From Candidatus Latescibacterota bacterium (GTDB lineage Bacteria; Latescibacterota; UBA2968): a stretch of DNA of 64,000 nt. Positions 39,666 to 62,200 of the stretch are shown in pieces. Below the pieces are notes generated by a model. It was not told where the DNA came from. It searched no databases and worked only from the letters and a program-made list of their open reading frames with translations. The translations under genes and the position numbers were made by a program. Position 1 is the first letter of the stretch. Each line of letters starts with the position of its first letter. The stretch covers positions 864,001-928,000 of the forward strand of contig OZ244960.1 in NCBI GenBank assembly GCA_965222605.1. The letters run 5' to 3'.

Positions 39666-39735
39666 TGTTCGCGTAGATTTCAGTTTTCAACCATTTTGCG
39701 GAGGTCGCCTTTAAAAAAGAATATAAGGAGGAGTT

Positions 39736-40374
39736 GTGATTCGTGCAATTTTGTGGGACAACGATGGGGTGCTGGTAGATACCGAAGGTCTGTACTTTCA
39801 GGCGGGACATGAGGTATTGGCGACACAAGGTGTTGAACTAACACATAAGGATTTTGCCGAACAGTCGCTAAAAAAAGGACTGAGTGTATTCGATTTTCTG
39901 CCCGTTCAAGATGCTGAATTGATCGAGCAGTTGCGTTTAAAACGCAATGCGCGGTACAGCGCATTATTAGCCAACGGCGTACAGGTCGTGGATGGCGTGG
40001 TAGAAACACTTGAAACATTCTATGGTCGCGTACAAATGGGCATTGTGACGGGTTCTCGCAGAGATCACTTCGACATTGTTCACGCACAGACGAATTTGCT
40101 CCCATTTTTCGATTTTGTGCTCGCAAGAGAAGATTACGAAGAAGCAAAGCCACATCCAGATGCGTATTTAACGGCCATGCGATTACACGGGCTACAACCC
40201 GATGACTGTGTTGTCGTGGAAGATTCTGAGCGCGGATGTATCGCGGCAGCGGCGGCTGGCTTGCGCGTGCTCGCTGTGCCAAATGCGCTGTCGAAATACG
40301 GAGACTTTTCATCTGCGTACAAAATACTGAACTCGGTGCGAGATGTCGTAAATGAGATAGAAAAGTTGGATTGA
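39736..40374 (+). CDS. HAD-family phosphatase
   Basis: WDNDGVLVDTE, KPHPD and VEDSERG. Confidence 0.94.
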   Translation: MIRAILWDNDGVLVDTEGLYFQAGHEVLATQGVELTHKDFAEQSLKKGLSVFDFLPVQDAELIEQLRLKRNARYSALLANGVQVVDGVVETLETFYGRVQMGIVTGSRRDHFDIVHAQTNLLPFFDFVLAREDYEEAKPHPDAYLTAMRLHGLQPDDCVVVEDSERGCIAAAAAGLRVLAVPNALSKYGDFSSAYKILNSVRDVVNEIEKLD

Positions 40375-44974: not shown

Positions 44975-45631
44975 ATGAAACACCTGCGTAAATCTATCGT
45001 TATAAGCGTCATAGCTCTGGTAGCTATGAACTTCCCCATCCCCATTTTCGGTCAGACCACAATCGCCATTCAGGGCGGCATGAGCCGGGCGACATTGGGC
45101 GGAAGTGATGTAGAAAATGCGGACGCGCGCATCGGCATCACGCTCGGTGCTTCTGCAACCATCCCAATACAAGACAAATTCAGCCTTCGACTCGGTGGCA
45201 ACTATGTGCAGAAGGGGGCCAAGTTCGGAGGCAACATCGAGGGTTTTGGTGGGGGATCGGGAAATACTGATGTTGATTACATCGAGCTTTCGGGCCTGGG
45301 CGTCTTCAAGCTCGCGCCGTCTGAAAGTCAGGCTTCAGTATATATGCTCGTTGGACCATCGGTGGCATTCAAGACCAAGTGTGAAGGCTCCTTCTCAGGC
45401 TCCTTCTTCTCAGAGGACATCAACCTATCAGAGGACTGCGGCGAGGACACCAACAGCTTTGACTTCGGTATTACTGGAGGGATTGGTGCAGGGATGGCGA
45501 TCTCCGAACAGATGACGTTCTCGGTAGATTTGCTGTACACCCTGGGGATCCTGTCGCTTGACGATGCAGATGACGTTAAGAATCGGGCCCTTATCATTCG
45601 GGCTGGTGTCGGCTTTCCTATCGGAAAATAG
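44975..45631 (+). CDS. PorT/OmpA-like small outer-membrane beta-barrel
   Basis: Signal peptide; YVQKG, GPSVAF, FDFGITGGIG and YTLG; terminal AGVGFPI. Confidence 0.85.
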   Translation: MKHLRKSIVISVIALVAMNFPIPIFGQTTIAIQGGMSRATLGGSDVENADARIGITLGASATIPIQDKFSLRLGGNYVQKGAKFGGNIEGFGGGSGNTDVDYIELSGLGVFKLAPSESQASVYMLVGPSVAFKTKCEGSFSGSFFSEDINLSEDCGEDTNSFDFGITGGIGAGMAISEQMTFSVDLLYTLGILSLDDADDVKNRALIIRAGVGFPIGK

Positions 45632-45647
45632 TGATAGGCAAAAATTT

Positions 45648-45690
45648 AAAAAAGGCGATCCATTACGCAATGGGATTTGGATCGCCTTTT
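45648..45690 (+). terminator. Terminator after the beta-barrel gene
   Basis: AAAAAGGCGATCCA...TGGATCGCCTTTTT. Confidence 0.85.
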
Positions 45691-46082
45691 TGTATATATC
45701 AATCACTCATGCCTGCCACAATTCACCGTGGACATCGGCACAAGGAAACTTCAAATCGGACACTTTATTGATAAATTCTCGACCCGTAAAAATCATAAAT
45801 TTCTATAATACAATTTATAGAATTGTCACTTTTTTGAAACTTTATAAGGGACAAAGCGTGAGAAACGGAACAGAGGCAGATAGCAAAGTTGGCTGACAAG
45901 CCTTATTTTGCCTTTCCTACCATATCAGCAGCATCAACGTTTTTATTGTATCCTTATCGGGAGGGAATTGCCACGATTAATAGTGTGAACGGTTTTCTTT
46001 AAGCTGTTGACAAACAAATATTTATGCAACTTGGGATTCGGAATCTGTAAGTTATCAAAACAAATCCTTACAAATCCAAATT

Positions 46083-46235
46083 GCAAAACTATTCACACGG
46101 TTGATCATGGCATTTTCTTTCAAATTCTTTTCCTTCGCGCTCGGCTTTACCAGTCTGCTGAGCCGGATATCCTCGCTTTACCTGCGGTCGCTTTACCCCC
46201 AGACCAGCAGCTTTTCCCCTTCTCTGGATCTGGAT
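46083..46235 (+). pseudogene. Degenerate 5' remnant of a paralog of the giant surface protein
   Basis: The leader GCAAAACTA..ACACGGTT.ATCATG and the reading KFFSFALGFTSLLS...RSLYPQTS...PSLD match 56260-56430 (KFLSFILGITSLLS...RSLSPQTS...PSLD). Confidence 0.8.
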
Positions 46236-46683
46236 AGTTCTGAAGGCGATCAAGTAGTATCCTCTCTCGATGTACCTCCCAATCACGCTGTTTTCCTTCA
46301 GATTTTCCGCACAGATATTCCAGGCCTGTACTGCATAGACCTGTCCCGTGATGATTCTACACGGGCCAAGTCCATGCGGTATGCCAGCGGTATTTCTGCG
46401 TGTATTGAATCTGATGTTACACATGTCTCGCGTTTCTGTCGTGCAGAGGGGGCGCAATGAATCACCTGCGCCCGACAGCCATTAGGCTGACAAAGTATCT
46501 TTTATCTGTGCGTTGACAGAAGACGAACTGCTATACTGACGTTGCGCTCCGCTCAGCACGCGCAGCATAACGTCAGTAATGACAGACACCTGATATTGTG
46601 CCTGTGCGTAACGTCAATAACTTCGAGTGTCATCTGATGCGGGCGATGTATTGCCCAATGCCCGGTCCCTTCAGGTCTTATTT

Positions 46684-46735
46684 TTGCAATCATTTGCATA
46701 CTGTTGTACTATGTATAAGGGCATCTGAAGCATTC
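46684..46735 (+). promoter_or_regulatory. Duplicated promoter module Y, copy 1 (copy 2 at 47692-47744)
   Basis: TTGCAA-N17-TACTAT in both copies, with shared TCATTTGCATA and GCATC.GAAGCATTC. Confidence 0.8.
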
Positions 46736-46769
46736 CGTTCACAGCGAAATTCAACAATGTGGGGGATGA

Positions 46770-47498
46770 ATGGATAAGCAGAAAATTCTGATTGTAGATC
46801 ATGAGCCATGTGTAATATCAGCGCTCGTAGAATTCTTGAAAGACGAACCGTATGAAATATTCACTGCGGAAAATGGACTAAAAAGCCTTGAAATTTTGAG
46901 AACAGAGAATATTGACCTCGCTGTGGTTGAGGCACATTTAGAGGATATGGATGGGATAACATTGTTGGAGCATGTGCGGGCAGAGAAAATTCAAACAGCC
47001 ATGCTGATCATGACGAGTTTGGGGTCCGCAGAATTGGGCGAACAACTGATCAAGGCCGGTGCTGTGAGTGTATTTGATAAACCAATAGAGAGAGATGTTT
47101 TTTTAACCAGAGTCAAAAGATACATCTCTCCACAAAATAGTTGGGAGAACCGTCTGGAATCATTTCTCGAAGATAATTACAGCAATCCAGAGCTGAAATT
47201 TGAAGACGTCATGCACTATTTCAATTTCTCTAAGACCTATGGATATGCATTGTTCAAGCAATATTTTGGAGAGTCATTCAGGATTTGCCTGCGCAATTTA
47301 CGCCTGACAAAGGCTGAAGAAGCATTGAAGAACACATCGGATTCCATTTCAGAAATTGCTCAGCGGTGTGGTTTTGCATACTTATCGACGTTTAGCAGAG
47401 TTTTCAAAGCGAAGTATGGAAATAACCCGACCACATATCGAAAATTCCATTTCAGAAATTGCCTATCAGTGTGGATTTATGCCCTCATCGACTTTTAG
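46770..47498 (+). CDS. Atypical response regulator: receiver domain + AraC HTH
   Basis: KILIVDHE...DLAVVEAHLEDMDG...FDKP receiver; RLTKAEEALKNTSDSISEIAQRCGFAYLSTFSRVFK AraC signature. Confidence 0.9.
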   Translation: MDKQKILIVDHEPCVISALVEFLKDEPYEIFTAENGLKSLEILRTENIDLAVVEAHLEDMDGITLLEHVRAEKIQTAMLIMTSLGSAELGEQLIKAGAVSVFDKPIERDVFLTRVKRYISPQNSWENRLESFLEDNYSNPELKFEDVMHYFNFSKTYGYALFKQYFGESFRICLRNLRLTKAEEALKNTSDSISEIAQRCGFAYLSTFSRVFKAKYGNNPTTYRKFHFRNCLSVWIYALIDF

Positions 47499-47899
47499 CA
47501 AGATTTTCAATGAAAATAATCCGGCCACATATCAAAAAAATGGACACTGGGACAAATTTTGAACTTCAGAACAAATTTGCGGGGTTGACATCGTAAGGGC
47601 AATAGTACTATTCTAAGAACTGACCATTAATAGGACTTACTTTTTTTCTAAGATGCAAAATATACCAGCAGGTCTTATGAGTAATTTTTCTTTGCAATCA
47701 TTTGCATAATGTCGTACTATATACTAAGAGCATCAGAAGCATTCTATATTTTTCCGTGTAATTTCCATACGAGAAGGTATTAAACTGGAGGAGGCGTAAC
47801 ATGTAAAAAATTAGTTGCCATCAAGTTCGACGTTCGACGACCAGTAACTCATCGATACTTTTTCTTATCACACAGGCAAATTCTAAAGGGAGGTTCCAA

Positions 47900-48394
47900 A
47901 TGCGTAACACAGGAATAGTATTCATGCTGGCTATCATTGTCGGCCTCGGCACTTTTACTGGCTGTGCAACGAGCCAGGCCAAGTCCCAATTGCAGATACG
48001 TGAGTTCCAAACTCGTAGTTTCGAGACCAAAGACGTCAAGGCGGTCCTCAAGGCTCTAATGAATATCTTACAAGACGAGGGATACGTGACGAAGCAGGCT
48101 AACTTAGAATTAGGGTTTATTAATGCCACAAAGGAGTATGAGGAGGGCCTGAAAGTCTCGGAACTTTTATTCATGCGTCGCGGAGAATGGTCGCGCAATT
48201 CTATCATCGACGCGACATTTAATGTCTCACAGTACGGTGAAACATGTCGTGTTCGAGCTAACTTCCAGACAAAAACCCTGAATCGTGAAGGTGGTGTTAA
48301 CAAGGTCAAACCGATCGACTCTGAGCAGTTCTACATTGACTTCTTCGCCAAAGTGAGTAAGGGGATTTTCATCAATGTTGACCAGGGGCTTTGA
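47900..48394 (+). CDS. Array lipoprotein, type A
   Basis: Lipobox FTGC; LQIREFQTRSFE...ILQDEGY...LGFINA...FYIDFFAKVSKGIF. Confidence 0.85.
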   Translation: MRNTGIVFMLAIIVGLGTFTGCATSQAKSQLQIREFQTRSFETKDVKAVLKALMNILQDEGYVTKQANLELGFINATKEYEEGLKVSELLFMRRGEWSRNSIIDATFNVSQYGETCRVRANFQTKTLNREGGVNKVKPIDSEQFYIDFFAKVSKGIFINVDQGL

Positions 48395-48536
48395 TCCAAT
48401 TTGGGCCAAGGATACAAATTGATCGATAACACATCAGATGCGATCTTTTTGCCAGGGCCAGCCTGCATCAGGCAATATCGTCTAAATTGTATAGGTACTG
48501 ATCTTACTGGCCATCATCAACAGAAGGAGGCGTAAC

Positions 48537-48977
48537 ATGAAAAAATTACTGATCGCAGTAATGGCTGTGGTATTCCTGTCGGGTTGCATGATGACCCCGC
48601 AGCACCGAAGAGCTGTGCGGGATGATTCTGGCGACCGGATGACTGTTGGAAAGGTTCAAAAAGAAATAAGGGTTGGTATGAGTGGTGCCGAAGTTGCCCA
48701 GGTTCTCGGATCGCCAAATATCGTTTCAACAGATGAAGAACGGCGTGAAGTATGGATATATGACAAAATTTCGACGGAAGAAGCATACTCAACCAGTCAG
48801 GGCGGTGTTGCTTCTCTCATCCTTGTAGGCCTGACCGATGTTTTGCTTGGCGGAAGTGGCGGACTGTCGGGTTCATCCGGAGCCAGTTCAACATCTCAGA
48901 GAACCCTCACTGTCATAATAAAATTTGACGAAAATAAACAGGTGAGAGACTTCGCGTATCACACATCGCGGTTCTGA
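48537..48977 (+). CDS. SmpA/OmlA (BamE-like) domain lipoprotein
   Basis: Lipobox LSGC; IRVGMSGAEVAQVLGSPN...EVWIYD...LTVIIKFDENKQV. Confidence 0.85.
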   Translation: MKKLLIAVMAVVFLSGCMMTPQHRRAVRDDSGDRMTVGKVQKEIRVGMSGAEVAQVLGSPNIVSTDEERREVWIYDKISTEEAYSTSQGGVASLILVGLTDVLLGGSGGLSGSSGASSTSQRTLTVIIKFDENKQVRDFAYHTSRF

Positions 48978-49035
48978 GGAAGACACACCAGATATAGTAG
49001 TGGAAGTTGTGAGCCGGCTTCAAGGGTGGTCACAG

Positions 49036-49590
49036 ATGATTTATAAAAAAAATCTTCTATTATCACTACTTGCCATAATGGTATTAGTTTTGACGAGTTG
49101 CGGAAGTAGTATTCCCAAAGGTGCTTTTAAGCTAACACCAGAATTATTGCAAAAGCGGGTTCTAAAAACGAGAAAATACGAAGGCATTTCAGAAGTTGAT
49201 ATTTTATCGGCATCTGCTGGCGTGCTTCAAGATTTGGGATTCAATATTGATGAGAGTGAATCAAAACTCGGACTTATCGTTGGCTCAAAGGTAAGAGATG
49301 CGACTGAAATAGGGCAGGAGGTTTGGTGGTGGACTAAGGCGTTGCTTCTCAGGTGGACGGCGTTTACTGATGAGACTGATGACTATCAAAAGTTCAGGGC
49401 GTCTGTTGTTATACGTCCAATATCAGAAGATAACGATAAAACACACTATGTTAGTGTGACATTCCAGCGGATTGTTTGGGATACTGCTGACAAAATTTCG
49501 AAACAAGAGACCCTGAATGAGCCTGAAATATATCAAGAGTTCTTTGATCGTCTTTCAAAATCAGTCTTTCTGGAAGGGCAAAAAATATGA
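49036..49590 (+). CDS. Array lipoprotein, type B1
   Basis: Lipobox LTSC; TRKYEGISE...LQDLGFNIDESE..LGLIVGSK...YQEFFDRLSKSVFLEGQKI. Confidence 0.85.
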   Translation: MIYKKNLLLSLLAIMVLVLTSCGSSIPKGAFKLTPELLQKRVLKTRKYEGISEVDILSASAGVLQDLGFNIDESESKLGLIVGSKVRDATEIGQEVWWWTKALLLRWTAFTDETDDYQKFRASVVIRPISEDNDKTHYVSVTFQRIVWDTADKISKQETLNEPEIYQEFFDRLSKSVFLEGQKI

Positions 49591-50009
49591 AAATCTCCAG
49601 GATACTGACAGCCTCAATTGCCATATTAATTGGGTTATCCGGATGTGGAACATCAAAAAATCATTTGCTGAAAATAGATGAAAGCCAGGTCAAGTTGCGA
49701 AGCATGCAAACCCGTGCATTCGACACCACAGAAAAGAATAAGATGCTTAGAACCGTAATAACCACAATCCAAGATTTCGACTATGTCCTGGATAAAGCAG
49801 ATGCAACGCTTGGAATGATTAGTGCCACAAAACTCGACGAACATCAATACCGAATAACGATTACTGTTCGACCGAGGGGCGAAACCCAATTGTTGGTACG
49901 TGCAAACGTACAATACAAACAAAAGGCTGTTAAAGATCCAATAATATATCAAAATTTCTTCACCTCTTTGGCAAAATCGATATTTCTGACCGCTCACGAG
50001 GTTGATTAA
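49587..50009 (+). CDS. Array lipoprotein, type C1
   Basis: ATGA overlap with B1; lipobox LSGC; LRSMQTRAFD...FLTAHEVD. Confidence 0.88.
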   Translation: MKISRILTASIAILIGLSGCGTSKNHLLKIDESQVKLRSMQTRAFDTTEKNKMLRTVITTIQDFDYVLDKADATLGMISATKLDEHQYRITITVRPRGETQLLVRANVQYKQKAVKDPIIYQNFFTSLAKSIFLTAHEVD

Positions 50010-50010
50010 A

Positions 50011-50154
50011 CGTAATTATTTAGGTTCTTGTGGTCGCGTAGGAGGGAAATCCTTTTCCCGACCTTGATCGCGGCAGGGATGCCGCTCCGACAGCATCCTT
50101 TTGTGATTTTTGTGCATTTTGTGGCTAATCATCCAAATGACCTAAATAGTTACG
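50011..50154. mobile_element. 144-bp MITE-like element with 15-bp TIRs and a 6-bp target duplication, carrying a GTAG-type REP doublet
   Basis: CGTAATTATTTAGGT / ACCTAAATAGTTACG (14/15 match); ATTAAA on both sides; the empty site GTTGATTAAACGA is seen after the four sister genes. Confidence 0.88.
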
Positions 50155-50298
50155 ATTAAACGATCATCAAAGAGCCGGAGTAGTTTCGCATTCAACCTGT
50201 CTGATGGCAGATCCCAACGTATCACGCATCGCGGTTCTCAGGTGGCACGCCGGTAAAGGAAGAGCCGCTCTCCGCACAGCTTTGCGAGGAGATTAAGT

Positions 50299-50913
50299 AT
50301 GATCATCCAGGGGAAAAGACATCCATTCGTATGGCTTACGATAATGGCACTGATTGTGGCAGGCTGTGGGAGTAGTTTGCCCAAACATGTCTTAAGACTA
50401 ACACCAGATACATTACAGAACAGGTCCTTACAAACAAGAAAATACGAAGGCATTTCAGAAGCTGATCTTTTATCTGCATCTACTGGTGTGATTCAAGATT
50501 TGGGATTCATCATTGATGAGAGCGAGATAAATCTCGGACTTATCGTTGGCTCAAAAGACAGAGATGCACCTCCTGATGCAGGACAGCGGATAGGGCAAGT
50601 GCTTGGGGGAATTTTTATGTTCACTCTCGCTATAGCCGCTGCTGCTATAGACGAGGAAGACATTGCTGAAGATCTTATAGATAACATGGTTTTGTCTGTT
50701 GACGACTATCAAAAGTTATGGGCGTCTATTGTTATCCGTCCAGCATCGGAAGATGACGATAAAATACACTATGTCAGGGTGACATTTCAGCGGATTGTTT
50801 GGGATACCGAAGGCGAAATAGACAGAATGCAAAGCCTAAGTGAGCCTGAAATGTATCAAAAGTTCTTCGATCTTCTTTCAAAATCAGTCTTTCTGGAAGG
50901 GGAAAAAATATGA
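50299..50913 (+). CDS. Array lipoprotein, type B2
   Basis: Lipobox VAGC; paralog of B1 with a different central insert; ends SVFLEGEKI. Confidence 0.88.
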   Translation: MIIQGKRHPFVWLTIMALIVAGCGSSLPKHVLRLTPDTLQNRSLQTRKYEGISEADLLSASTGVIQDLGFIIDESEINLGLIVGSKDRDAPPDAGQRIGQVLGGIFMFTLAIAAAAIDEEDIAEDLIDNMVLSVDDYQKLWASIVIRPASEDDDKIHYVRVTFQRIVWDTEGEIDRMQSLSEPEMYQKFFDLLSKSVFLEGEKI

Positions 50914-51377
50914 ACCTCTCCGGGATATTGATAGTCGCTATTGCCACATTAATCGCGCTTTCTGGATGCACATCATCATCTGGAAGCACATCATCACAAG
51001 AGCAATTGCTGAAGATGGATGAAAGCCAGGTTAAGCTGCGAAGCATGCAAACCCGTGCATTCGATACCACAGATAAAGATAAAATGCTCAGCACTGTAAT
51101 ATCCACACTTCAGGATTTAGACTATATCGTGAATGAAGCAAATGAAGTGATCGGAACGGTTAGTGCCCGAACAACTCACATTAGATATAAATACCTGAAA
51201 AAGAAAAAATATCCACTGCTAATAACGGTTACTGTTCGTCCAAGGGGCGAAACCCAATTGTTGGTACGTGCGAACGCTCAGTACAACCAAAAAGCTGTTG
51301 AAAATCCATTAGTATATCAAAATTTCTTCACTGTTTTGGCAAAATCAATTTTTCTCACTGCTCACGAGGTTGATTAA
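50910..51377 (+). CDS. Array lipoprotein, type C2
   Basis: ATGA overlap with B2; LSGC; ends FLTAHEVD. Confidence 0.88.
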   Translation: MNLSGILIVAIATLIALSGCTSSSGSTSSQEQLLKMDESQVKLRSMQTRAFDTTDKDKMLSTVISTLQDLDYIVNEANEVIGTVSARTTHIRYKYLKKKKYPLLITVTVRPRGETQLLVRANAQYNQKAVENPLVYQNFFTVLAKSIFLTAHEVD

Positions 51378-51977
51378 ACGACCATTGTCTCAGCCACAAT
51401 ACCGATAAAAATAAAAACATCTAAAGGGACATAAAATATGGCAATCTCCAGGATATTGACGGCTGTAATTGCCACCTCCATATTAATCGGGTTGCCCGGA
51501 TGTGGAACACTACAAAAGCGAATGATGGAATTGGAGACAAGTCGTCAACTCAAGCTGCGAAGCATGCAAACCCGTGCATTCGATACCACAGATAAAAATA
51601 AAATGCTTAGAACTGTAATAGCCACACTTCAGGATTTAGGCTATATCGTGAATGAAGCAAATGAAGTGATCGGAACGGTTAGTGCTCACACAACCAGTAA
51701 ATATATAATCTTGGAAAAGAAAAAATATCCACTGCTAATAACGGTTACTGTTCGTCCAAGGGGCGAAACCCAATTGTTGGTACGTGCGAACGCTCGGTAC
51801 AAACAACAAGAAGCTATTGAAAATCCATTATTTTATCAAAATTTCTTCACTGTTTTGGCAAAATCAATTTTTCTCACTGCTCACGAGGTTGATTAAACGA
51901 CCATTGTCTCAGCCACAATACCGATAAAAATAAAAACATCTAAAGGGACATAAAATATGGCAATCTCCAGGATATTG
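51315..51977 (+). repeat. 144-bp identical direct repeats at 519-bp period (51315-51458 and 51834-51977)
   Basis: Each copy spans a gene 3' end, the intergenic spacer and the next gene start; no differences were seen by eye. Confidence 0.9.
51438..51896 (+). CDS. Array lipoprotein, type C3
   Basis: LPGC; core nearly identical to C2; ends FLTAHEVD. Confidence 0.88.
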   Translation: MAISRILTAVIATSILIGLPGCGTLQKRMMELETSRQLKLRSMQTRAFDTTDKNKMLRTVIATLQDLGYIVNEANEVIGTVSAHTTSKYIILEKKKYPLLITVTVRPRGETQLLVRANARYKQQEAIENPLFYQNFFTVLAKSIFLTAHEVD

Positions 51978-52365
51978 GCGGCTGTAATCGCCACCTCCAT
52001 ATTAATCGGGCTGTCCGGATGCGCAACACCAAAAAAGCAGGAGACAAGTCAATTTGCGAAGCATGCAAACCCGTGCATTCGACTCTACAGACGAAAAAAA
52101 GACGCTTAGAAGTGTAATATCCACACTTCAAGATTTCGACTTTCTCATAGATGAAGTAAATAAAGTACTTGGAGTGGTTAGTGCCACAAGAAGGACCGAT
52201 TGGTTGCAAATAACAGTTACTGTTCGCCCAAAAGGTGAAACACAAGTATTTGTGCGTGCGAATATGGAATACAGGCAAAAGGGGGTTGAAGATCCAGCAG
52301 TATATCAAAAATTCTTCACGTATTTGGAAAAATCGATGTTTCTGACCGCTCACGAGGTTGATTAA
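51957..52365 (+). pseudogene. Array lipoprotein, type C4, frameshifted near 52050
   Basis: MAISRILAAVIATSILIGLSGCATPKKQETSQ is out of frame with LRSMQTRAFD...FLTAHEVD; the span of 409 nt is not a multiple of 3. Confidence 0.85.
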
Positions 52366-52420
52366 ACGACCATTGTGTCAGCTTCATCGACGCAATATCC
52401 CAGACCAGAGGAATAGAAAT

Positions 52421-52843
52421 ATGAATATCTCCAGGATACTGATGACAACAATTGCCGCATCCATTTTAATTGGGTTGTCCGGAGGTGTGTCATTTTCACA
52501 AAAAATAGAACTACATGAAAGTCAATTAGAAATTCGAAGCATGCAAACCCGTGCATTCGATACCACAGATGAGAATAAGACGCTTAGAGCTATAATAGCC
52601 ACACTTCAAGATTTCGGCTTTGTCATAAATAAAGCAGATGAAGCACTTGGAACGATTACTGCCAGAAGAATCGACAAATATTCATTGCGAATAACAGTTA
52701 CTGTTCGTACAAGGGGTGAAACGCAAGTGTTAGTGCGTATGAATGCGTACTATGGTCGGCCTGTTAGGAAACCAATAATATATCAAAATTTCTTCACATC
52801 TCTGGCAAAGTCGATGTTTTTGACCGCTCACGAGGTTGATTAA
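52421..52843 (+). CDS. Array protein, type C5 (lipobox Cys replaced by Gly)
   Basis: MNISRILMTTIAASILIGLSGGVSFSQK; IRSMQTRAFD...FLTAHEVD. Confidence 0.87.
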   Translation: MNISRILMTTIAASILIGLSGGVSFSQKIELHESQLEIRSMQTRAFDTTDENKTLRAIIATLQDFGFVINKADEALGTITARRIDKYSLRITVTVRTRGETQVLVRMNAYYGRPVRKPIIYQNFFTSLAKSMFLTAHEVD

Positions 52844-52890
52844 ACGACCATTCAAGCCGTATCTCCTTTCCGATATTGAGCAATAAACCC

Positions 52891-55800
52891 ATGCAAAAAT
52901 TCATTCTTTATTCCACCTTTTTTATTCTCGTCCTCTTGCTATTCGTGCGAGATAGTCGCGCTCAAAACGCCCTTACAGGGCATACCAATGCCGTCGAATC
53001 TGTGGCATTTTCTCAGGATGGCGCGCTACTCGCTTCTGGGTCAAGGGATGGCACGATCAAGTTGTGGAACGCGACGACCAGACAAAATACCGACACCTTT
53101 GACGGACACACGGATGTGGTCAGTGCTGTGGCATTTGCCCCAGATGGGACACTACTCGCTTCTGGATCATCAGTAGATGGCACAGTCAAGTTGTGGAACG
53201 TGCTGGCAGGCACAAATATCGCCATCCTTGAGGAACATACAGATGTGGTCAGTGCTGTGGCATTTACCTCAGATGGGATATTGCTCGCTTCCGGATCCGT
53301 GAATGGCGCGATCCTCCTGTGGGATGTGGCGACAAAGACCGCCACCAACCTTAAGGGACAGCCGGTCAGTTCTATAGCGTTTTCACAAGATGGGACGCTA
53401 CTCGCTTCCGGGTCAGCGAATGGCACAATCCTGCTGTGGGATGTCGCGACGGGCACAAATATCGCCACCTTTGACGAGCATACGGATGATGTCTCATCTG
53501 TAGCGTTTTCACAAGATGGAACGCTACTCGCTTCCGGGTCTGATGATAACACGGTCAAGCTGTGGGACGTGCAGGCGGGCACAAATATCACCACCCTTGA
53601 GGAACATACTGATGCCGTCAGTTCTGTGGCGTTTTCACAAGATGGAACGGTACTATCCTCCGGATCAGTGGATGGCATGGTTACACTCTGGAACGTGGGA
53701 AAAAGAAAACAGATCACCACCCTTGAGGAACATAGGGATGCGATCCGCTCTGTGGCGTTTTCCTCTGATGGAACGCTACTCGCTTCCGGGTCATTAGATG
53801 GCAGGATCTTGCTTTGGAACGTATCAGAATGGACACGGCCTCGCCCCGATATACTGAGAAAAATCTCCGGCGACAACCAGCAAGGCACACCCAGAGCAAT
53901 ATTGGCAAATCCCCTGATCGTTGAAGTACGAGATCAAAACGATAATCCCTTATCAGATGTGCAAGTCACCTTCAGAGTTACCGCCGGCGCGGGAAAGCTC
54001 AGCGGACGATTCACGATTGAGTACGCAACAACCGATGCCAATGGCCACGCAGAGAGGTCACTTACCCTCGGTCCCAATCCGGGAACAAACACCGTTGAGG
54101 TATCTATCGTCGGGCGCGACCCGGAGACGTTTAATGCAATAAGCATTGGAACGCCTGCGGTGCCGAGCCTGGACGGTGATTATCCAACATGGCATGTACC
54201 CGACGGTGCAATCGCACGCCTGGGAAAAGGACCTATTGGTACGGGGGACAAAGCGGTCGCATTCTCGCCAAACGGTCAAAGTCTCGCTGTGGCAAGTGGC
54301 ATTGGCGTATGGCTTTACGATGTGGCGACCTCCCGTGAACTCATGCTACTACCCTCTGCGAGTGCAGTCAGTTCTGTGGCGTTTTCAAGAGATGGGATGC
54401 AACTGGCTTCAGGGTCAGTAGATGGCACGGTTGCGCTGTGGGACATCGCGACGGGACAAAATACCGACACATTTGAAGCGCGCAGGGGCAATATCTCTCC
54501 CGTAGCATTTTCACAATATGAGACGCTGACAGCTTCCAGATCAGTCGAATCGGTGGCATTTTCACCTGATGGAACACTGATAGCTTCTGGGCGAAAGGAT
54601 GGCACAGTTGTGCTGTGGGATATTGCGACTGGGAACGCCACCACCCTTGAGGGGCATACAGATTGGGTCAGTTCTGTGGCGTTTTCTCGCCAGGGGGTAC
54701 TGGCTTCCGGGTCTTTGGATAGAACGATCAAACTGTGGGACATCGCGACGGGACAAAATACCGACACCTTTGAGGCGCACAGAGGCAATGTCTTGTCCGT
54801 GGCATTTTCACCCGATGGAACAATACTCGCTTCCGGATCAGGGGATGGCACGGTCGTGCTGTGGAACATTGCGACTGAAAATGCCATCATCCTTGAAGGG
54901 CATACAGATGATGTCAGTTCTGTGTCATTTTCACCCGATGGAACAATACTATCTTCCGGATCTGATGATAATACGATCAAACTGTGGAACGTGCAGGCGC
55001 GCAAAAATACCGCCACCTTTGAAAAACATACAGATAACGTCAGTTCTGTATCCCTGTCTCAGGATGAGGATGGGACGCTACTACTCGCTTCTGGTTCTTT
55101 GGATGGCGCAATCCTCCTGTGGGACGCAGCGACTGGAAACGCCTCCACCCTTGAAGGGCATACACAGGCAGTCAGTTCTGTATCCTTTTCACCTAATGAG
55201 GATGAGACGCTACTCGCTTCCGGGTCTTTAGATGGCACGATTCTACTGTGGGACACAGCGAGAAGAGAGCAGATTACCACCCTTGATGGATATTCGGGAG
55301 ATGTCTTTTCTGTGTCGTTTTCCCCAGATGGGAGGCTGATAGCTTCCGGGTCTTTGGATGGCACGATCCTCCTGTGGGACATTGCGACTGGAAACACCAC
55401 CACACTTGAGGGACAGGCGGTCAGTTCTGTCGCGTTCTCTCCCGATGAGGATGAAACGCTACTCGCTTCTGGATCAGTAGATGGCACGATCCTCCTGTGG
55501 GACATTGCGACTGGAAACACCACCACTCTTAAGGGACAGGCAGTCAGTTCTATCGCCTTCTCTCCCGATGGGACAATACTCGCTTCCGGATCTCTGGATG
55601 GCACGATCCTCCTGTGGGACATTGCGACTGAAAACACCACCTCACTTGAGGGACATACGCAGGTGGTCAGTTCTATGGCATTTTCGCAGGATGAGGATGG
55701 ACTACTCGCTTCCGGGTCAGTAGATGGCACGATTCTGCTATGGGATGTAGCCACGCGCACCACTACCGCTACCCTTAAGGGACAGGCAGTCAGTTCTGTG

Positions 55801-56205
55801 TCCTTTTCACCCGATGGGACGCTACTATCTTCCGGGTCTTTGGATGGCACGGTCCTCCTGTGGGACATTGCGACGGAAAACGCCACCATTCTTGAGGGAC
55901 ATAAGGACAACGTCTTTTCCGTGGCGTTTTCCCCAGATGGAATGCTGCTATCTTCCGGATCAGGGGATGGCACAATTCTGTTGTGGGATATGTCGCCGTA
56001 TATCACACCTTCAACCCCTACGCCAGCCCCTACACCTGACTTTAATGGCGATGGAACTGTTGGTATTCCCGACTTTTTGCTATTTGTAGAGCACTTCGGG
56101 GTAAGTCAAGGGGCTGCGGGGTATGATGCACGATACGATCTGGATGGCGACGGCACAATTGGGGTGGGTGATTTTCTGATCTTTATCGATGCCTTCGGCA
56201 AATAA
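52891..56205 (+). CDS. Secreted WD40 protein: 7 WD40 + Big_1-like Ig domain + 14 WD40 + PT linker + dockerin-like double EF-hand
   Basis: Signal peptide MQKFILYSTFF...SRA; 21 GH...SVAFSPDG.LLASGS.DGTI.LWD repeats; ISGDNQQG...VEVRDQ; DFNGDGTVGIPDFL and DLDGDGTIGVGDFL. Confidence 0.93.
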   Translation: MQKFILYSTFFILVLLLFVRDSRAQNALTGHTNAVESVAFSQDGALLASGSRDGTIKLWNATTRQNTDTFDGHTDVVSAVAFAPDGTLLASGSSVDGTVKLWNVLAGTNIAILEEHTDVVSAVAFTSDGILLASGSVNGAILLWDVATKTATNLKGQPVSSIAFSQDGTLLASGSANGTILLWDVATGTNIATFDEHTDDVSSVAFSQDGTLLASGSDDNTVKLWDVQAGTNITTLEEHTDAVSSVAFSQDGTVLSSGSVDGMVTLWNVGKRKQITTLEEHRDAIRSVAFSSDGTLLASGSLDGRILLWNVSEWTRPRPDILRKISGDNQQGTPRAILANPLIVEVRDQNDNPLSDVQVTFRVTAGAGKLSGRFTIEYATTDANGHAERSLTLGPNPGTNTVEVSIVGRDPETFNAISIGTPAVPSLDGDYPTWHVPDGAIARLGKGPIGTGDKAVAFSPNGQSLAVASGIGVWLYDVATSRELMLLPSASAVSSVAFSRDGMQLASGSVDGTVALWDIATGQNTDTFEARRGNISPVAFSQYETLTASRSVESVAFSPDGTLIASGRKDGTVVLWDIATGNATTLEGHTDWVSSVAFSRQGVLASGSLDRTIKLWDIATGQNTDTFEAHRGNVLSVAFSPDGTILASGSGDGTVVLWNIATENAIILEGHTDDVSSVSFSPDGTILSSGSDDNTIKLWNVQARKNTATFEKHTDNVSSVSLSQDEDGTLLLASGSLDGAILLWDAATGNASTLEGHTQAVSSVSFSPNEDETLLASGSLDGTILLWDTARREQITTLDGYSGDVFSVSFSPDGRLIASGSLDGTILLWDIATGNTTTLEGQAVSSVAFSPDEDETLLASGSVDGTILLWDIATGNTTTLKGQAVSSIAFSPDGTILASGSLDGTILLWDIATENTTSLEGHTQVVSSMAFSQDEDGLLASGSVDGTILLWDVATRTTTATLKGQAVSSVSFSPDGTLLSSGSLDGTVLLWDIATENATILEGHKDNVFSVAFSPDGMLLSSGSGDGTILLWDMSPYITPSTPTPAPTPDFNGDGTVGIPDFLLFVEHFGVSQGAAGYDARYDLDGDGTIGVGDFLIFIDAFGK

Positions 56206-56283
56206 GGATCCTCGAATTAACAACTGCTCTAATCGCGGACCAAATGTTAGCCCTGAGTGGCAAAACTATCTACACGGTTAATC

Positions 56284-59200
56284 ATGAAACCTCCCGTTAA
56301 ATTTCTCTCCTTCATACTTGGCATCACCAGTCTGCTGAGCCTGATATTCTTGATTTACCCGCGATCACTATCCCCACAGACCAGCAACTTAGCCTTAGAG
56401 ACCGCTGCGCCACCTTCTCTCGACTTTGACGGCAGTGGGATTGTGGATTTTCCCGACTTTTTGATGTTTATAAGCGCGTTTGGATCCGAGGAGGGCCAGA
56501 ATAAGTACAATGCAAAATACGATCTCAATAGCGATGGCAAAATTGCCTTTGAAGACTTTCTAATTTTAACCGACAACTTTGGAAAAAACATTGTAGCACA
56601 AAAGTCTCCAACGTCATCGGATCAGGACGCGAGCACGACTCAAAGCATGGCGGAGAACACGGGGACCACCGGTGCGACATTGCCTGTTACCGCGTTGGAT
56701 GAATCGGTTGTCGCATCAACACCACAGCCATTGACAGAAGCGACATTGGATGGCAGTGTGGTCAAACTGACCCTGAGCAGTGCTGCTTACGAGTCGTTTA
56801 TCTTCGACATTCGAGATAACGTGAAGGTATCGGGTATTGCTGGGGTTACCTTTGACAGTTTCTTCGATGTAGATCGCGTGAGCGATACAGTGGTAACCGT
56901 TGAGCTTACATTCAGTGGGAATATGACCACCGATGGCACGCTGATTTTCACCGTGGGAGCAGGTGCCATAGCCAACTACAGTGGCTCTGCACTCACTGCG
57001 ACATTGTCCGTTACCGCGCTGGAGGAATCGGTGGTCGCGTCAACACCACAGCCATTGACAGAAGCGACATTGAATGGCAGTGTGGTCACCCTGACCCTGA
57101 CAGGACGTTCTTATGAGCGGTCCGTGTTCGACATTAGTGATGCGGTGAAAGTATCAGGCATTTCCGGGGTTACCTTTGACGGTTTCTTCGATATAGATCG
57201 CGAGAGCGATACAGAGGTAACCGTTGAGCTTACATTCAGTGGGAATATGACCACCAATGGCACACTGACCTTCACGGTAGAGGCAGCTGCCATAGCGGGC
57301 TACAATGGTCCCGCACTCACTGCGACATTGCCCGTTACCGCTGGCCCTGGTAATGGAAGCCAACCACCACAACCACCGCCACCGGGCGGGGGCACGCCCA
57401 CTGGAAGTCCCGATCTAATTGTCGAATCGCCTACAGTCAGCGATAGTAGTCCGGGTCCAGAAGCTTACTTCACACTAAGTGCGACTGTTCGCAATCAGGG
57501 CGGCAGTCGGTCTGACTTTACGACATTGCGCTATTATCTATCAACCGATGAGACTATCACGACAGGTGATACGGAAGTAGATACGGACTTCGTGAGCCGC
57601 CTTGACGCTTCTGAAACCAGTGATGAGTCTGCTCGTTTGACAGCACCGTCGAGTGAGGGCACATATTACTACGGTGCCTGTGTCGAGTCTGTGTCTGGCG
57701 AATCCGACACAGGTAACAACTGCTCCGATGCAGTGCGTGTCACTGTTACTGGTTCTGACTTAGTCGTTGAATCGCCTTCGGTCGATAATAACACCCCGGG
57801 ACCGGGGGAGTCTTTCTACCTGAGTGCGACTGTTCGCAATCAGGGCGGCAGTCGGTCTGACTTTACGACATTGCGCTATTATCTGTCAACCGATGAGACT
57901 ATCACGACAGGTGATACGGAAGTAGATACGGACTTCGTGAGCCGCCTTGACGCTTCTGAAACCAGCGATGAGTCTGCTCGTTTGACAGCACCGTCGAGTG
58001 AGGGCACATATTACTACGGTGCCTGTGTCGAGTCTGTGTCTGGCGAATCCGACACAGGTAACAACTGCTCCGGTGCTGTCGCCATCACTATTACTGGTTC
58101 TGACTTAGTCGTTGAAGCACCCACAGTCAGCGAAGACATCCTGGGGCCAGAGGAATACTTCAGGCTAAGCACCACTGTTCGCAATCAGGGTGGCAGTCGA
58201 TCTGCCTCTACGACATTGCACTATTATCTGTCAACCGATGAGACCATTACGACAGGTGATACGGAAATAGAAACCAGCTACGTTAGCTCCCTTGATCCTT
58301 CTGAAACCAGCGATGAGAGGGCTTATTTGGACGCCCCGTTGAGCGAGGGCAAGTATTACTATGGCGCCTGTGTCGAGAGCGTCACTGGAGAGAGTAATAC
58401 GGGTAACAACTGCTCCAGTGCTGTCACTGTCACTGTTAGTGGTTCTGACTTAGTCGTTGAATCGCCTTCGGTCAGTGATAATACCCTTTCGTCAGGGCAA
58501 TCCTTCTACCTGAATGCGACGGTTCGCAATCAGGGTGGCAGTCGATCTGCTTCTACGACATTGCGCTATTATCTGTCAACGAATGAGACGATCAATACGA
58601 GCGATACGGAAGTAGATACGGACTATGTGAGTTTCCTTGACGCTTCTGAAAGTAGTGATGAGTCTGCTCGTTTGGCGGCCCCTTCGGGTGAGGGCACGTA
58701 CTATTACGGTGCCTGTGTCGAGGCAGTCACTGGCGAATCCGACACAGGTAACAACTGCTCCAATGCTGTCGCCGTGACCGTAGCTCGCACGATCAGTACC
58801 AATCAGCCACCGACTTTCAGCGAGGGTTCGAGCACCACGCGCAGCTTGCACGAGAACACGACAGGGACACAGGATATCGGGAACCCGGTGCGTGCGACAG
58901 ATAGCGACCATGACAGGCTGACCTACAGCCTTGAAGGTACGGATATAGGGAGTTTCAGCATTACCTCAACCACCGGTCAGATCAGAACCCTATCGAGTGT
59001 AACGTACGACTATGAGACAAAAAGTAGCTATTCAGTGAGGGTGCGGGTAGATGACAGTCAAGGTGGCAGCGCGATCATTGCTGTGAGGATCACCCTGACC
59101 GATGAGAACGAATCGCCACACAGACCTGCTGCGCCCACAGTGACCGCCTCAACGTTGAATAGCCTGAGTGTGCGTTGGACGGCACCGAATAACACCGGAC

Positions 59201-62200
59201 CTGCGATTAGCGACTACGATGTGCGCTACAAAGCGAACAATGGCAGTTTCACCAATTGGAACCACAGCGGCAGTAGCGCGACCACCACGATCACCGGCTT
59301 GACCGCGAATACCCGTTATGAAGTACAGGTGCGAGCGCGCAACGCCGAAGGGGACAGCCCCTGGTCCCCATCAGTTCATGGGACGACCACAGCCAATCAA
59401 GCACCCACGTTCAGCGAAGGTTCGAGCACCACGCGCAGATTGTACGAAAATACGACAGAGATGCAGAATATCGGAAATCCTGTGACGGCAACCGACAGCG
59501 ACGGAGGCACGTTGACCTATAGCCTTGAAGGCACAGATGCGGGGAGTTTTACTATTGTCTCGGATAGCGGTCAACTCAGGACCCAATCGGGTGTGATGTA
59601 TGACTATGAGACAAAGGACAGCTATTCGGTGACGATGCGAGTCGAGGACGGCAAAGGCGGCAGTGCGACCATTGAGGTAGAGATCACCCTGACCGATGAG
59701 AACGAACCACCGCACAGACCCAATGCGCCAACAGTGACAGTTCCGACATTGAATAGCCTGAGTGTGCGTTGGACAGCACCAGATAATACCGGACCTGTCA
59801 TCAGCGACTACGATGTGCGCTACAAAGCGAGCGGTGGCAATTTCACCAACTGGCCCCATACGGGCACGGGCACAAGCACGACAATCAGGAATTTGACCGC
59901 GAATACGCGTTACGAGGTGCAGGTGCGGGCGATCAATGACGAAGGCACGGGCGATTGGTCGCCATCGGTTAACGGAACAACCACTGCCAATCAGGCACCT
60001 GAGTTCAGTGAGAATTTGCCGACGCGCAACGTTGTCGAGAACACGACAGGGACACAGAATATCGGAAATCCTGTGACGGCAACCGACAGCGACGGAGGTA
60101 CGCTGACCTACGGCCTTGAAGGCTCGGATGCCGGGAGTTTTACTATTGTTTCGACCAGCGGTCAACTCAGGACTCAATCGGGTGTGATGTATGACTATGA
60201 GACAAAGGACAGCTATTCGGTGACGATGCGGGTGGAGGACGGACAAGGCGGCAGTGCGACCATTGAGGTGGAGATCACCCTCACCGATGAGAACGAACCA
60301 CCGGGCAGACCCACCCTGCCCCTGATGACGGCCTCGACATTGAATAGCCTGAGTGTGCGTTGGACAGCACCGGATAACACCGGACCTGTGATTAGCGACT
60401 ACGATGTGCAGTACAGGGAAGCAGGAGGCAATTTCGCCAACTGGCCCCATACGGGCAAGGGTCTGACTACAACGATCGCGGGTCTGACCACAGGTACGAC
60501 CTACGAAGTGCAGGTGCGGGCGATCAATGATGAAGGCACGGGCGACTGGTCGCCATCGGTTAACGGAACAACCACTGCCAATCAGGCACCCACATTCAGC
60601 GGTTCGAGCACCACGCGTAGCGTTGCCGAGAACACGACAGGGACACAGAATATCGGAAATCCTGTGACGGCAACCGACAGCGACGGAGGCACGCTGACCT
60701 ATAGCCTCGAAGGCACGGATGCAGGGAGTTTCAGCATCATCTCAACCACAGGTCAACTCAGGACCCAATCGGGTGTGATGTATGACTATGAGACAAAGGA
60801 CAGCTATTTGGTGACGGTGCGAGCCGAGGACGGTCAAGGCGGCAGTGCAACCATTGAGGTGGAGATCACCCTCACCGATGAGAACGAACCACCGCACAGA
60901 CCCAATGCGCCGACAGTGACAGCCTCAACGTCGAATAGCATGAGTGTGCGTTGGACAGTACCGGATAACACCGGACCTGTGATCAGCGACTACGATGTGC
61001 AGTACAGGGAAGCAGGAGGCAATTTCACCAACTGGTCGCATACTGGCACGGGCACAACCACGACGATCACAGGTCTGACCACGGACACGACCTACGAGGT
61101 GCAGGTGCGGGCGATCAATGACGAAGGCACGGGCGACTGGTCGCCATCGGTTAACGGAACAACCTCTGCCAATCAAGCACCCGCGTTCAATGAGAATTTG
61201 CCGACGCGCAGCATTGCCGAGAACACGACAGGGACACAGAATATCGGGAATCCAGTAACGGCAACCGACAGCGACGGAGGCACGCTGACCTACAGCCTCG
61301 AAGGCACGGATGCCGGGAGTTTCAGCATCATCTCGGATAGCGGTCAACTCAGGACCCAATCGGGTGTGATGTATGACTATGAGACAAAGGACAGCTATTT
61401 GGTGACGGTGCGAGTCGAGGACGGTCAAGGTGGCAGTGCGACCATTGAGGTGGAGATCACCCTCACCGATGAGAATGAACCACCGGGCAGACCCAATGCG
61501 CCGACAGTGACAGCCTCAACGTCGAATAGCATGAGTGTGCGTTGGACGGCACCGGATAACACTGGACCTGTGATCAGCGACTACGATGTGCGCTACAAAG
61601 CGAGTAGTGGCAATTTCACCAACTGGCCCCATACGGGCACGGGCACAAGCACGACGATCACGGGTCTGACCACGGACACGACCTACGAGGTGCAGGTGCG
61701 GGCGATCAATGATGAAGGCACGGGCGACTGGTCGCCATCGGTTAACGGAACAACCACCGCCAATCAGGCACCTGAGTTCAGTGAGAATTTGCCGACGCGC
61801 AGCATTGCCGAGAACACGGCGGCGGGACAGGACATCGGGAGTCCTGTGATCGCGACGGACAGCGACGGAGGCACGCTGACCTATAGCCTCGAAGGCAGGG
61901 ATGCCAGAGCATTCACCATCGTCTCGGATAGCGGTCAACTCAGGACCCAATCGGGTGTGATGTATGACTATGAGACAAAGGACAGCTATTTGGTGACGGT
62001 GCGAGTCGAGGACGGTCAAGGTGGCAGTGCGACCATTGAGGTGGAGATCACCCTCACCGATGAGAACGAACCACCGGGCAGACCCAACGCGCCAACAGTG
62101 ACAGCCTCAACGTCGAATAGTTTGAGTGTGCGTTGGACAGCACCGGATAACACTGGACCTGTGATTACTGACTACGATGTGCGCTACAAAGCGAGCAGTG

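Follow-up and report, generated by a model that had tools for sequence, protein, structure and literature searches.

The window analysed here is a stretch of 64,000 nucleotides (nt) from a Candidatus Latescibacterota bacterium (contig OZ244960.1, contig positions 864,001-928,000), and all position numbers below refer to this window. Between 47900 and 52843 it carries an array of eight paralogous genes for small exported proteins (A, B1, C1, B2, C2, C3, a broken C4, and C5) together with one gene, E, for a lipoprotein of the BamE fold. Our analysis indicates that the array probably consists of three joined cassettes of a widespread module of BamE-fold and helix-grip lipoproteins, assembled at a recombination hot spot and forming a putative accessory envelope complex.

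The array genes all lie on the plus strand in the list of open reading frames (ORFs), and the eight paralogs are shown to belong to a single unnamed family, made up of small exported proteins with the helix-grip fold. Searched against the whole 6.34-Mb single-contig genome, their profile hit exactly eight places, all in the array, with E-values from 4e-66 to 1e-46, which is far beyond chance. An earlier reading of the DNA, made from the letters only (the sequence-only reading), had described eight paralogs around an SmpA/BamE-like gene, and both the ORF list and the genome profile search show them as described. It had also written out a shared motif, which is reproduced by the 13 invariant columns in the alignment of the eight paralog proteins. 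The features of the array are listed in Table 1.

Table 1. Genes, relics and repeat element of the array, in window coordinates (aa, amino acids; MITE, miniature inverted-repeat transposable element).
Feature	Position	Strand	Description
E-start relic	47783..47813	+	ribosome-binding site, ATG and first codons; 1-nt insertion gives ATG TAA; precedes A
A	47900..48394	+	164-aa lipoprotein, lipobox FTGC; divergent family member with loop insertion; profile E-value 1e-46
E	48537..48977	+	146-aa lipoprotein, predicted BamE fold (SmpA/OmlA), lipobox LSGC; hydrophobic Gly-rich insertion of ~30 residues (residues 85-115)
B1	49036..49590	+	184-aa lipoprotein, lipobox LTSC; predicted helix-grip paralog with hydrophobic loop insertion of ~30 residues; type I cassette
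C1	49587..50009	+	140-aa lipoprotein, predicted minimal helix-grip domain; ATGA-coupled to B1; type I cassette
MITE-like element	50012..50153		142 nt, non-coding, directly behind C1
E 3'-end relic	50218..50242	+	precedes B2
B2	50299..50913	+	204-aa lipoprotein; type II cassette B with longer loop
C2	50910..51377	+	155-aa lipoprotein; type II position-2 subunit; ATGA-coupled to B2
C3	51438..51896	+	152 aa; chimeric extra copy; atypical lipobox LPGC
pseudo-C4	51957..52365 (frames 51957-52109 + 52054-52365)	+	type II position-3 subunit; 5-nt deletion after 52044
C5	52421..52843	+	140 aa; type II position-4 subunit; signal peptide, no lipobox Cys (LSGGVS)

Cassettes of the E-B-C module and their union at one site

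The basic unit of the module is shown to be a three-gene operon, E-B-C, in which B and C are translationally coupled. One genome per species was scanned, 410 C-type relatives were confirmed and 79 loci were kept. Nearly every locus has a B-type gene (about 180 aa) with a C-type gene (about 141 aa) directly behind it, and the two overlap by exactly 4 nt in 63 of the 76 loci that have two or more members. The same 4-nt (ATGA) overlap is found in both B1/C1 and B2/C2, in agreement with the coupling that the sequence-only reading had proposed. A match to the E profile is present in 75 of the 79 loci, directly upstream of the family genes; of the remaining four loci, L006 is decayed and retains only a C fragment, while the other three begin at a contig edge. 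Clustering of all neighbours in the 79 loci gave no conserved flanking gene besides E and the family itself.

The record titles of these loci carry at least 11 phylum-level labels, among them Latescibacterota, Gamma- and Alphaproteobacteria, Planctomycetota, several 'Deltaproteobacteria' lineages, Nitrospinota, Nitrospirae, Omnitrophota, Chlorobium, Gemmatimonadota, Spirochaetaceae, Verrucomicrobiales and Binatia. The trio is also carried on a 7,989-bp Acinetobacter plasmid, where it lies beside a toxin-antitoxin pair and a SulP transporter, on a 643-kb replicon of Azospirillum brasilense, and on replicons of Vibrio sp. THAF. Where these replicons are annotated, the trio genes are called 'hypothetical protein', and the same holds for the helix-grip genes wherever a source names them, except for two JGI labels of 'LpoB'; E bears at most an automatic JGI label of 'BamE'. 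C-type proteins form 1,518 clusters at 90% identity in a word search, the helix-grip family as a whole forms 2,257 clusters at 50% identity in a full hidden Markov model (HMM) search, and E forms at least 7,940 clusters at 90% identity. A literature search, with subscription journals and supplements outside its scope, found no paper on the E-B-C trio.

Within the phylum the module is accessory. The family is present in 29 of 151 sampled genomes, our own included, and in 8 of the 19 other genomes of the same genus; the 11 that contain none are 95-99% complete. Copy numbers in the phylum sample are 1, 2, 3, 4 or 6, with the eight copies of the window as the maximum. The complete genome L005/G077 carries a comparable six-copy array in the order E-B-C-C-C-B-C.

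The members of the array can be assigned to cassette types from a maximum-likelihood tree of all 191 family members, in which B and C are separated by a deep split. B1 and C1 (type I) group with two-member loci of the closest named relatives, labelled Candidatus Latescibacterota (L001-L004 and L008), to which they are 90-94% identical (support 0.90 and 0.82). B2, C2/C3, C4 and C5 (type II) fall into four separate clades according to position 1 to 4, with support of 0.94, 0.97, 0.85 and 0.53; B2 groups with L010_1 and C2 lies in the position-2 clade. Corresponding five-gene loci, E-B-C-C'-C'', make up 12 of the 79 (L005, L010, L014, L018, L020, L023, L029, L032-L034, L040 and L059). A forms a long branch, and A-type genes stand beside E without B or C in L080-L083, which are single-hit genomes of the phylum sample. 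The order is A then E in L080, from the same genus, where the A ortholog has 87% nucleotide identity, and E then A in L081-L083, from other families. Three cassette variants are thus shown to exist: E-B-C, E with an A-type protein, and E-B-C-C'-C''.

All three variants are found at a single chromosomal site, bounded by a response regulator whose DNA-binding domain is of the AraC type (46770-47498) and a 1,109-aa WD40 protein (52876-56205). By DNA comparison the site holds A-E in L080, E-B-C in L001-L004 and L008, E-B-C-C'-C'' in L010, and all three in the window; close relatives have other cassette combinations at the site, or none. Remains of E are visible at both junctions of the array. The E-start relic before A gives a 31-nt local alignment to 48519-48548 with a score of 45, compared with 28 for the best of 300 shuffles, and in L002 and L010 the homologous stretch consists of the actual start of E with the region before it. 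The E 3'-end relic before B2 is a 25-nt match to 48955-48979 with a score of 40, compared with 25 for the best of 300 shuffles, and in L010 and L023 the stretch aligned to it begins inside the real E that precedes the type II B. A further 9-nt match to the tail of E upstream of A scored 18, below the 95th percentile of shuffles, and was rejected. The three cassettes thus now share one E; the other two of three E genes were lost, and these short remains are what is left of them. Since the members have position-by-position orthologs in other genomes, sequence comparison shows the array to be, in all appearance, a head-to-tail fusion of three pre-existing cassette types with one E retained, and not a local invention.

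More recent events can be recognized within the array. The five C genes have a common 21-nt 3' end, as the sequence-only reading had seen, and this end is part of an 86-nt repeat whose five copies are 85-100% identical. In a sliding comparison, C3 is 94-100% identical to C4 over the first 100 alignment columns and thereafter 83-100% identical to C2. C3 is therefore a chimera, made by an unequal crossover: its upstream region, 5' end and signal peptide are those of the C4 type, whereas the body is that of the C2 type. The break that had led to the naming of pseudo-C4 was located as a 5-nt deletion relative to L023, L010 and L005 in a DNA alignment. When contigs of four public runs (X1, X3, X6 and X8) were placed on 47700-53000, the five letters at 52044 were present in contigs from X3, X6 and X8, where C4 is intact, and absent in X1. 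The deletion killed C4 only recently. B1 has a possible earlier GTG start at 49000.

The element that the sequence-only reading had called a MITE is a small, non-coding, MITE-like mobile element inserted just behind C1. It has 20-nt inverted ends that are 90% complementary, and the same 8-9 nt stand on both sides of it. Just one other full copy (96%) is found in the genome, along with ten partial matches to its inner part. The bin with the element has 2-5 times the depth of its neighbours in X1 and X6, and less in X3, with many loose ends.

The contigs of the public runs further show that the locus is structurally polymorphic in nature, with several alleles coexisting. Alternative joints leave out A (47797>48534, in X3 and X8), leave out B1-C1 (48996>50335, in X3), or connect C1 to C5 (49616>52451, in X8). 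A B2 variant without 90 nt of the loop (50605>50696) occurs in all four runs, and a back-joint 52397>51424 occurs in X1, X3 and X8. The locus had been proposed to be under diversification, and this is the case for gene content, which varies through alternative cassettes at the same site and coexisting alleles, but not at the sequence level. For 21 of 24 ortholog pairs the ratio of nonsynonymous to synonymous substitution rates (dN/dS) lies between 0.07 and 0.40; the three higher values belong to C2 and C3 against L023 (0.60 and 0.80) and to C3 against L005 (0.50). For E it is about 0.2. Most ortholog pairs are under purifying selection, and pairwise dN/dS gave no sign of gene-wide positive selection. 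The value of 0.72 for C2 against C3 indicates relaxed constraint in this pair.

The proposal that the members are mostly lipoproteins agrees with the lipobox found in the anchored ones, and the missing Cys of C5 turned out to be a conserved feature. The Cys is also missing at the lipobox place in the position-4 orthologs L005_4, L010_4, L014_4 and L029_4, whereas it is present in L033_4; among those printed, 5 of the 6 members of the position-4 clade with a readable N-terminus have no lipobox Cys. Because position-4 orthologs share this feature, C5 is a conserved unanchored form rather than a product of decay, and is probably a soluble periplasmic protein.

Folds of the helix-grip proteins and of E

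C1 was modelled in AlphaFold2 from a 66-row alignment, with a mean predicted local distance difference test (pLDDT) of 91 and a predicted template modelling score of 0.75. The model starts with a helix, a strand and a second helix, continues with four strands and closes with a long C-terminal helix, and in it the antiparallel sheet is gripped by this last helix, as expected for a helix-grip protein. In a Foldseek search of the PDB, ranks 1-10 were all BamC chains, mostly of the N-terminal helix-grip domain (E-values 6.5e-7 to 1.9e-5, 18-22% identity), followed by KA1 and AMPK domains, a DUF4468 protein and Flpp3. However, in alignments of C1 by VIA-align, BamC ties with Flpp3, KA1 and Bet v 1. 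At the level of the model, the helix-grip fold class of C1 is established, whereas a specific kinship of the family with BamC is not. The suggestion of BamC-like helix-grip domains in the sequence-only reading can thus be retained for the fold and for the top Foldseek match, the BamC N-terminal domain, but not for descent.

B-type and C-type proteins are homologous over their whole length, as the comparison of their profiles by hhalign shows (99.8%, E-value 1.6e-28). In B two insertions are added, the hydrophobic loop (about 30 residues) and a shorter one. E, B and A each have a hydrophobic Gly-rich loop, 20-30 residues long, which is missing from the C-type. Invariant residues in C1 numbering include R38, Q41, R43, Q62, D63 and R105.

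No named family could be given to A, B and C from sequence, as the sequence-only reading had also concluded: Pfam and NCBIfam returned only chance-level rows for them and for all 66 members of the diverse alignment, scanned to an E-value of 1. Among PDB sequence profiles the best E-value was 0.077, and the BamC N-domain 2yh6_A came at 0.32. The 30 nearest clusters in the ESM Atlas are all 'hypothetical' and have no common Pfam family; the nearest named cluster is DUF3568, found on 13% of its members at a score of 0.88, which we take as a lead only. Two A-type homologs carry the JGI label LpoB (TIGR02722), but the NCBIfam scan of A shows no LpoB model at E-values up to 1, and the label was rejected. 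Among ten long homologs scanned, P0136 and P0155 are fused to unrelated C-terminal domains (DUF2141 or Lcl_C, the Lcl C-terminal domain), and the C-terminal halves of seven others (283-480 aa) have no Pfam match; the fused homologs give no functional clue.

E is supported as a BamE-fold lipoprotein, which agrees with the naming of this gene in the sequence-only reading. Its match to Pfam BamE (PF04355) is marginal, at 24.4 bits with a cut-off of 23.2, and covers E residues 42-77 and profile positions 10-45 of 71. In a six-frame search of the genome E is the sole BamE match and scores 21.3 bits, below the cut-off. The AlphaFold2 model of E has a mean pLDDT of 69.6, with core blocks at 88-95 and the loop below 50, and its two helices (37-43 and 50-57) followed by strands match the two helices and three-stranded sheet of BamE. 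Foldseek places BamE chains at ranks 1-6 and at most of the first 21 (E-values 3e-3 to 7.5e-2, template modelling score TMt 0.53-0.59), with a Bacteroides type VI secretion system (T6SS) immunity protein, 9uu1, at rank 7 and OsmE at rank 19. Across 52 homologs from other phyla E has 46-88% identity and 24 invariant columns, and precomputed PF04355 annotation is present on 40 of the 120 closest listed homologs. Compared with the SmpA-OmlA family of BamE, which includes OsmE, E is likewise a lipoprotein of similar size with two helices and then strands, but it has an inserted 30-residue hydrophobic Gly-rich loop, only a partial profile match, and far more conservation across phyla than the weak BamE match suggests.

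The C-terminus of E (48945-48974) has the motif AYH(T/S/A)S(R/K/S)F in the 27 aligned rows, out of 53, that were shown, and its last residue, Phe, does not vary in any of the 53. Outer-membrane barrel signals, too, typically end in an aromatic residue.

The putative envelope complex and its alternatives

Fixed gene order, 4-nt coupling and high conservation of E lead us to infer that the subunits occur in fixed proportion and bind each other. E, B and C would be made in this proportion and assemble into a membrane-anchored envelope complex. A multi-subunit system had also been proposed in the sequence-only reading, and the conserved B/C overlap is in keeping with it. In a three-chain prediction with mature E, B1 and C1, in which C1 was scored and own alignments were used, the interface score ipSAE was 0.60 (0.53, 0.62 and 0.60 in the separate runs), against 0.00 in every one of the three controls, one of which had B replaced. 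Contacts agree between the runs to at least 84%, with a partner pLDDT of no less than 79. Of 80 solved complexes 58 reached the mark used to judge such scores, as did 2 of 110 mismatched pairs; only 7 of these 80 complexes reached it with a score no higher than 0.60, together with both of the mismatches that passed.

Within such a complex, E might be the common hub and the helix-grip proteins its exchangeable partners, because one E serves three partner sets here and pairs with A alone elsewhere. In E. coli, a lipid-bearing Cys without a following Asp directs a lipoprotein to the outer membrane (the +2 rule), which may not hold in these phyla. The lipobox of every anchored member lacks Asp after the Cys, and by this rule the anchored members would be located at the outer membrane. 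The hydrophobic Gly-rich loops of E, B and A might dip into the membrane or lock the subunits together, while C-type subunits, including the unanchored C5 type, could be peripheral. The module would then act as an accessory, horizontally mobile device for envelope maintenance or protection and not as a core part of the β-barrel assembly machinery (BAM). A protective role fits the accessory, mobile and strain-variable pattern. For the client or ligand, the fold class makes a lipid a reasonable guess.

Several points weigh against this explanation. Support for the predicted E-B-C complex is weak, as graded by the tool itself, and the calibration of the score differs from a prediction with three chains and own alignments. 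The hub idea draws on gene order and on relics of 25-31 nt, and the membrane location and the role of the loops are likewise deduced from sequence, with the loop of E at low pLDDT. No experiment or annotation assigns the module a function. The locus maps were made by naive ORF calling, with the longest ORFs and most upstream starts, combined with HMM search. The phylum labels may partly belong to mislabelled bins of one lineage, as 'Gemmatimonadota' loci are near-identical to Latescibacterota in the tree. Finally, no contig from the four public runs extends across the whole array.

A lipid-binding role, in which the helix-grip subunits bind a lipid or hydrophobic ligand as START, Bet v 1, Flpp3 and KA1 do, and sense it or shuttle it between membranes, is compatible with the envelope complex but as an explanation of its own is rather unlikely. 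The invariant Arg, Gln and Asp residues of C1 listed above would suit such a role, and binding of anionic phospholipids has been reported for KA1 domains and for BamE. However, the domain has about 105 residues compared with 144-159 in the cavity-bearing START and Bet v 1 proteins examined, no lipid-transport gene is a conserved neighbour, and a shared fold shows no function. Flpp3 of Francisella (PDB 6pny and 2mu4), a small Bet v 1-like lipoprotein, has 7-8% identity and no relation found at the sequence level, and we know of no E-like partner for Flpp3.

Another reading, which we hold to be unlikely, is that the lipoproteins of the array protect against, or give immunity to, lipid-targeting toxins of competitors that act in the periplasm, and that conflict has amplified and reshuffled the genes. 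Tandem paralogs of small periplasmic lipoproteins at a strain-variable locus, movement of the module on plasmids, and the rank-7 match of E to the T6SS immunity protein are what such an array might show. PMC12419801 describes BamE-like membrane-anchored proteins as the most widespread immunity proteins of toxins that target lipid head groups, and as rapidly evolving, toxin-linked, periplasm-acting and often strain-variable. E shares the fold and the membrane anchoring of these proteins, but differs in evolving slowly (the identity across phyla and dN/dS given above) and in having no conserved toxin neighbour. Neither rapid evolution nor a conserved adjacent toxin gene, which together would mark a toxin-immunity array, was found in the array, and no toxin gene is a conserved neighbour in the 79 loci. 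The fixed E-B-C order with 4-nt coupling resembles a stoichiometric complex instead. PADLOC, a library of phage defence and not of toxin immunity, gave no match for the five proteins scanned.

It is quite unlikely that the genes encode true accessory subunits of BAM in non-proteobacterial phyla, with E as the BamE ortholog and B and C as a split BamC that docks to BamA/BamD and aids barrel folding. The top Foldseek matches of C1 and E are BamC and BamE, and E is the sole Pfam BamE match in its own genome. Five other trio-carrying genomes were checked for Pfam BamE, and in those labelled Chlorobium and Planctomycetota E is again the sole match, and a weak one, at 17.7 and 19 bits. BamC (NlpB, PF06804), the helix-grip lipoprotein of BAM in E. 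coli, is like C1 a lipoprotein with a helix-grip domain, and it was not found in any window protein, in the 66 family members (E-values up to 1), or in a six-frame search of the whole genome. The missing BamC in the genome would suit this reading, as would the outer-membrane barrel genes just upstream of the array (44975-45631) and a repeated cluster of 94-297-aa genes, only presumed to encode barrels, upstream of E in eight loci.

On the other side, the BamC fold match is tied with non-BAM proteins, and the 66 members have no Pfam match to BamC. All three Proteobacteria with the trio that were checked have a separate canonical BamE elsewhere, at 47-97 bits, while the E of the trio scores 19-21 bits in two of them and is not among the matches listed in the third. 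We found no orthology of E to canonical BamE, the BAM subunit itself. The sequence-only reading had suggested a BAM context, and nothing ties the array to BAM itself: in the genome BamD lies at 72,831 and the best BamA at 1,031,430, distant from the window. The module is missing in 11 near-complete members of the genus and in 122 of the 151 sampled genomes of the phylum, and in a gammaproteobacterium it is carried on the 8-kb plasmid. Because of this patchy distribution, the plasmid carriage, the lack of linkage to BamA/BamD and the coexistence with canonical BamE in Proteobacteria, the module would not be a core part of BAM; a looser functional link to BAM may nevertheless exist.

The architecture of the proteins also differs from that of BamC, which has two helix-grip domains behind a long unstructured N-terminal region that binds BamD; the PDB titles among the Foldseek matches of C1 refer to N- and C-domains and to BamCD. 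The two helix-grip units stand side by side in one chain in BamC and in two coupled genes here, with a single domain per protein (C-type of 140-155 aa; B-type with one domain and loops). A long N-terminal tail is missing, as the first helix of C1 begins about 12 residues after the lipid Cys. Furthermore, the family is accessory and mobile, occurs in many phyla, and in Proteobacteria stands alongside a full BAM.

Finally, an assembly chimera of co-existing strain variants, which the sequence-only reading had named as an outcome that would overturn it, is very improbable: the alternative joints in the public runs and the lack of any listed piece covering the whole array speak for it, but X1, which may be the source sample and hence not independent of the assembly, covers all 30 bins and has pieces with zero differences across three junctions (A into E, 48233-48713; the element into B2, 50103-50742; B2 into C2, 50844-51062), the genome is one 6.34-Mb contig, the complete genome L005/G077 has its comparable six-copy array, and the E relics at both junctions are as expected from real recombination.

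Surroundings of the array and meaning of the module

The WD40-repeat protein downstream of the array has an N-terminus resembling a signal sequence and a C-terminus with Asp/Gly-rich repeats of calcium-binding-like type, and it is followed by an open frame of more than 2,581 aa (56257-63999) that runs off the window. WD40 giants are found on both sides of type II cassettes in several related loci. Upstream, the end of the response regulator gene that encodes the AraC-type helix-turn-helix is partly duplicated in tandem at 47341-47577, where a 68-aa ORF (47356-47562) repeats the helix-turn-helix motif; relatives also have a second partial copy. The region 45900-46700 has no clear gene, and within it an intergenic stretch of about 240 nt (46083-46320) has counterparts of 77-80% identity behind the WD40 gene in L001, L002, L005 and L080 and may be a dispersed repeat. 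The barrel gene mentioned above (OMP_b-brl) lies upstream of the regulator. The presumed barrel cluster has one to four members upstream of E in L001-L008 and is not in the trio flanks of other loci. Further away, on the minus strand (38076-39665), a 528-aa protein with DUF2357 and a PD-(D/E)XK nuclease domain looks like a restriction or defence-type nuclease, and the 209-aa gene beside it (39680-40312) has no Pfam match. An Rfam scan of 45000-53500 gave two chance-level rows only, and a promoter and terminator scan gave counts no higher than in shuffles.

Taken as a module, the E-B-C trio is made of known fold families in a new, unnamed arrangement. The trio is very common and strongly conserved, and is present in cultured bacteria and on plasmids, yet the libraries searched give it no family name. 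The window hints at the way the module is put together, with one hub gene and exchangeable partner sets, and provides a natural series of alleles. A bolder view, which we regard as doubtful but worth stating, is that E-B-C might be an unrecognised, horizontally mobile outer-membrane lipoprotein machine, in which a hub of the BamE fold takes up interchangeable helix-grip subunits (A alone, B+C, or B+C+C'+C''). By varying this set at a single recombination hot spot, strains might tune some envelope property of importance to life in dense communities, either host-associated or in sediment. If this were true, BamE and BamC folds would serve as a modular toolkit beyond BAM in more than 10 phyla. 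A defined function for the trio would add a new accessory module to envelope biology and would show a role of BamE-like and BamC-like folds away from BAM.

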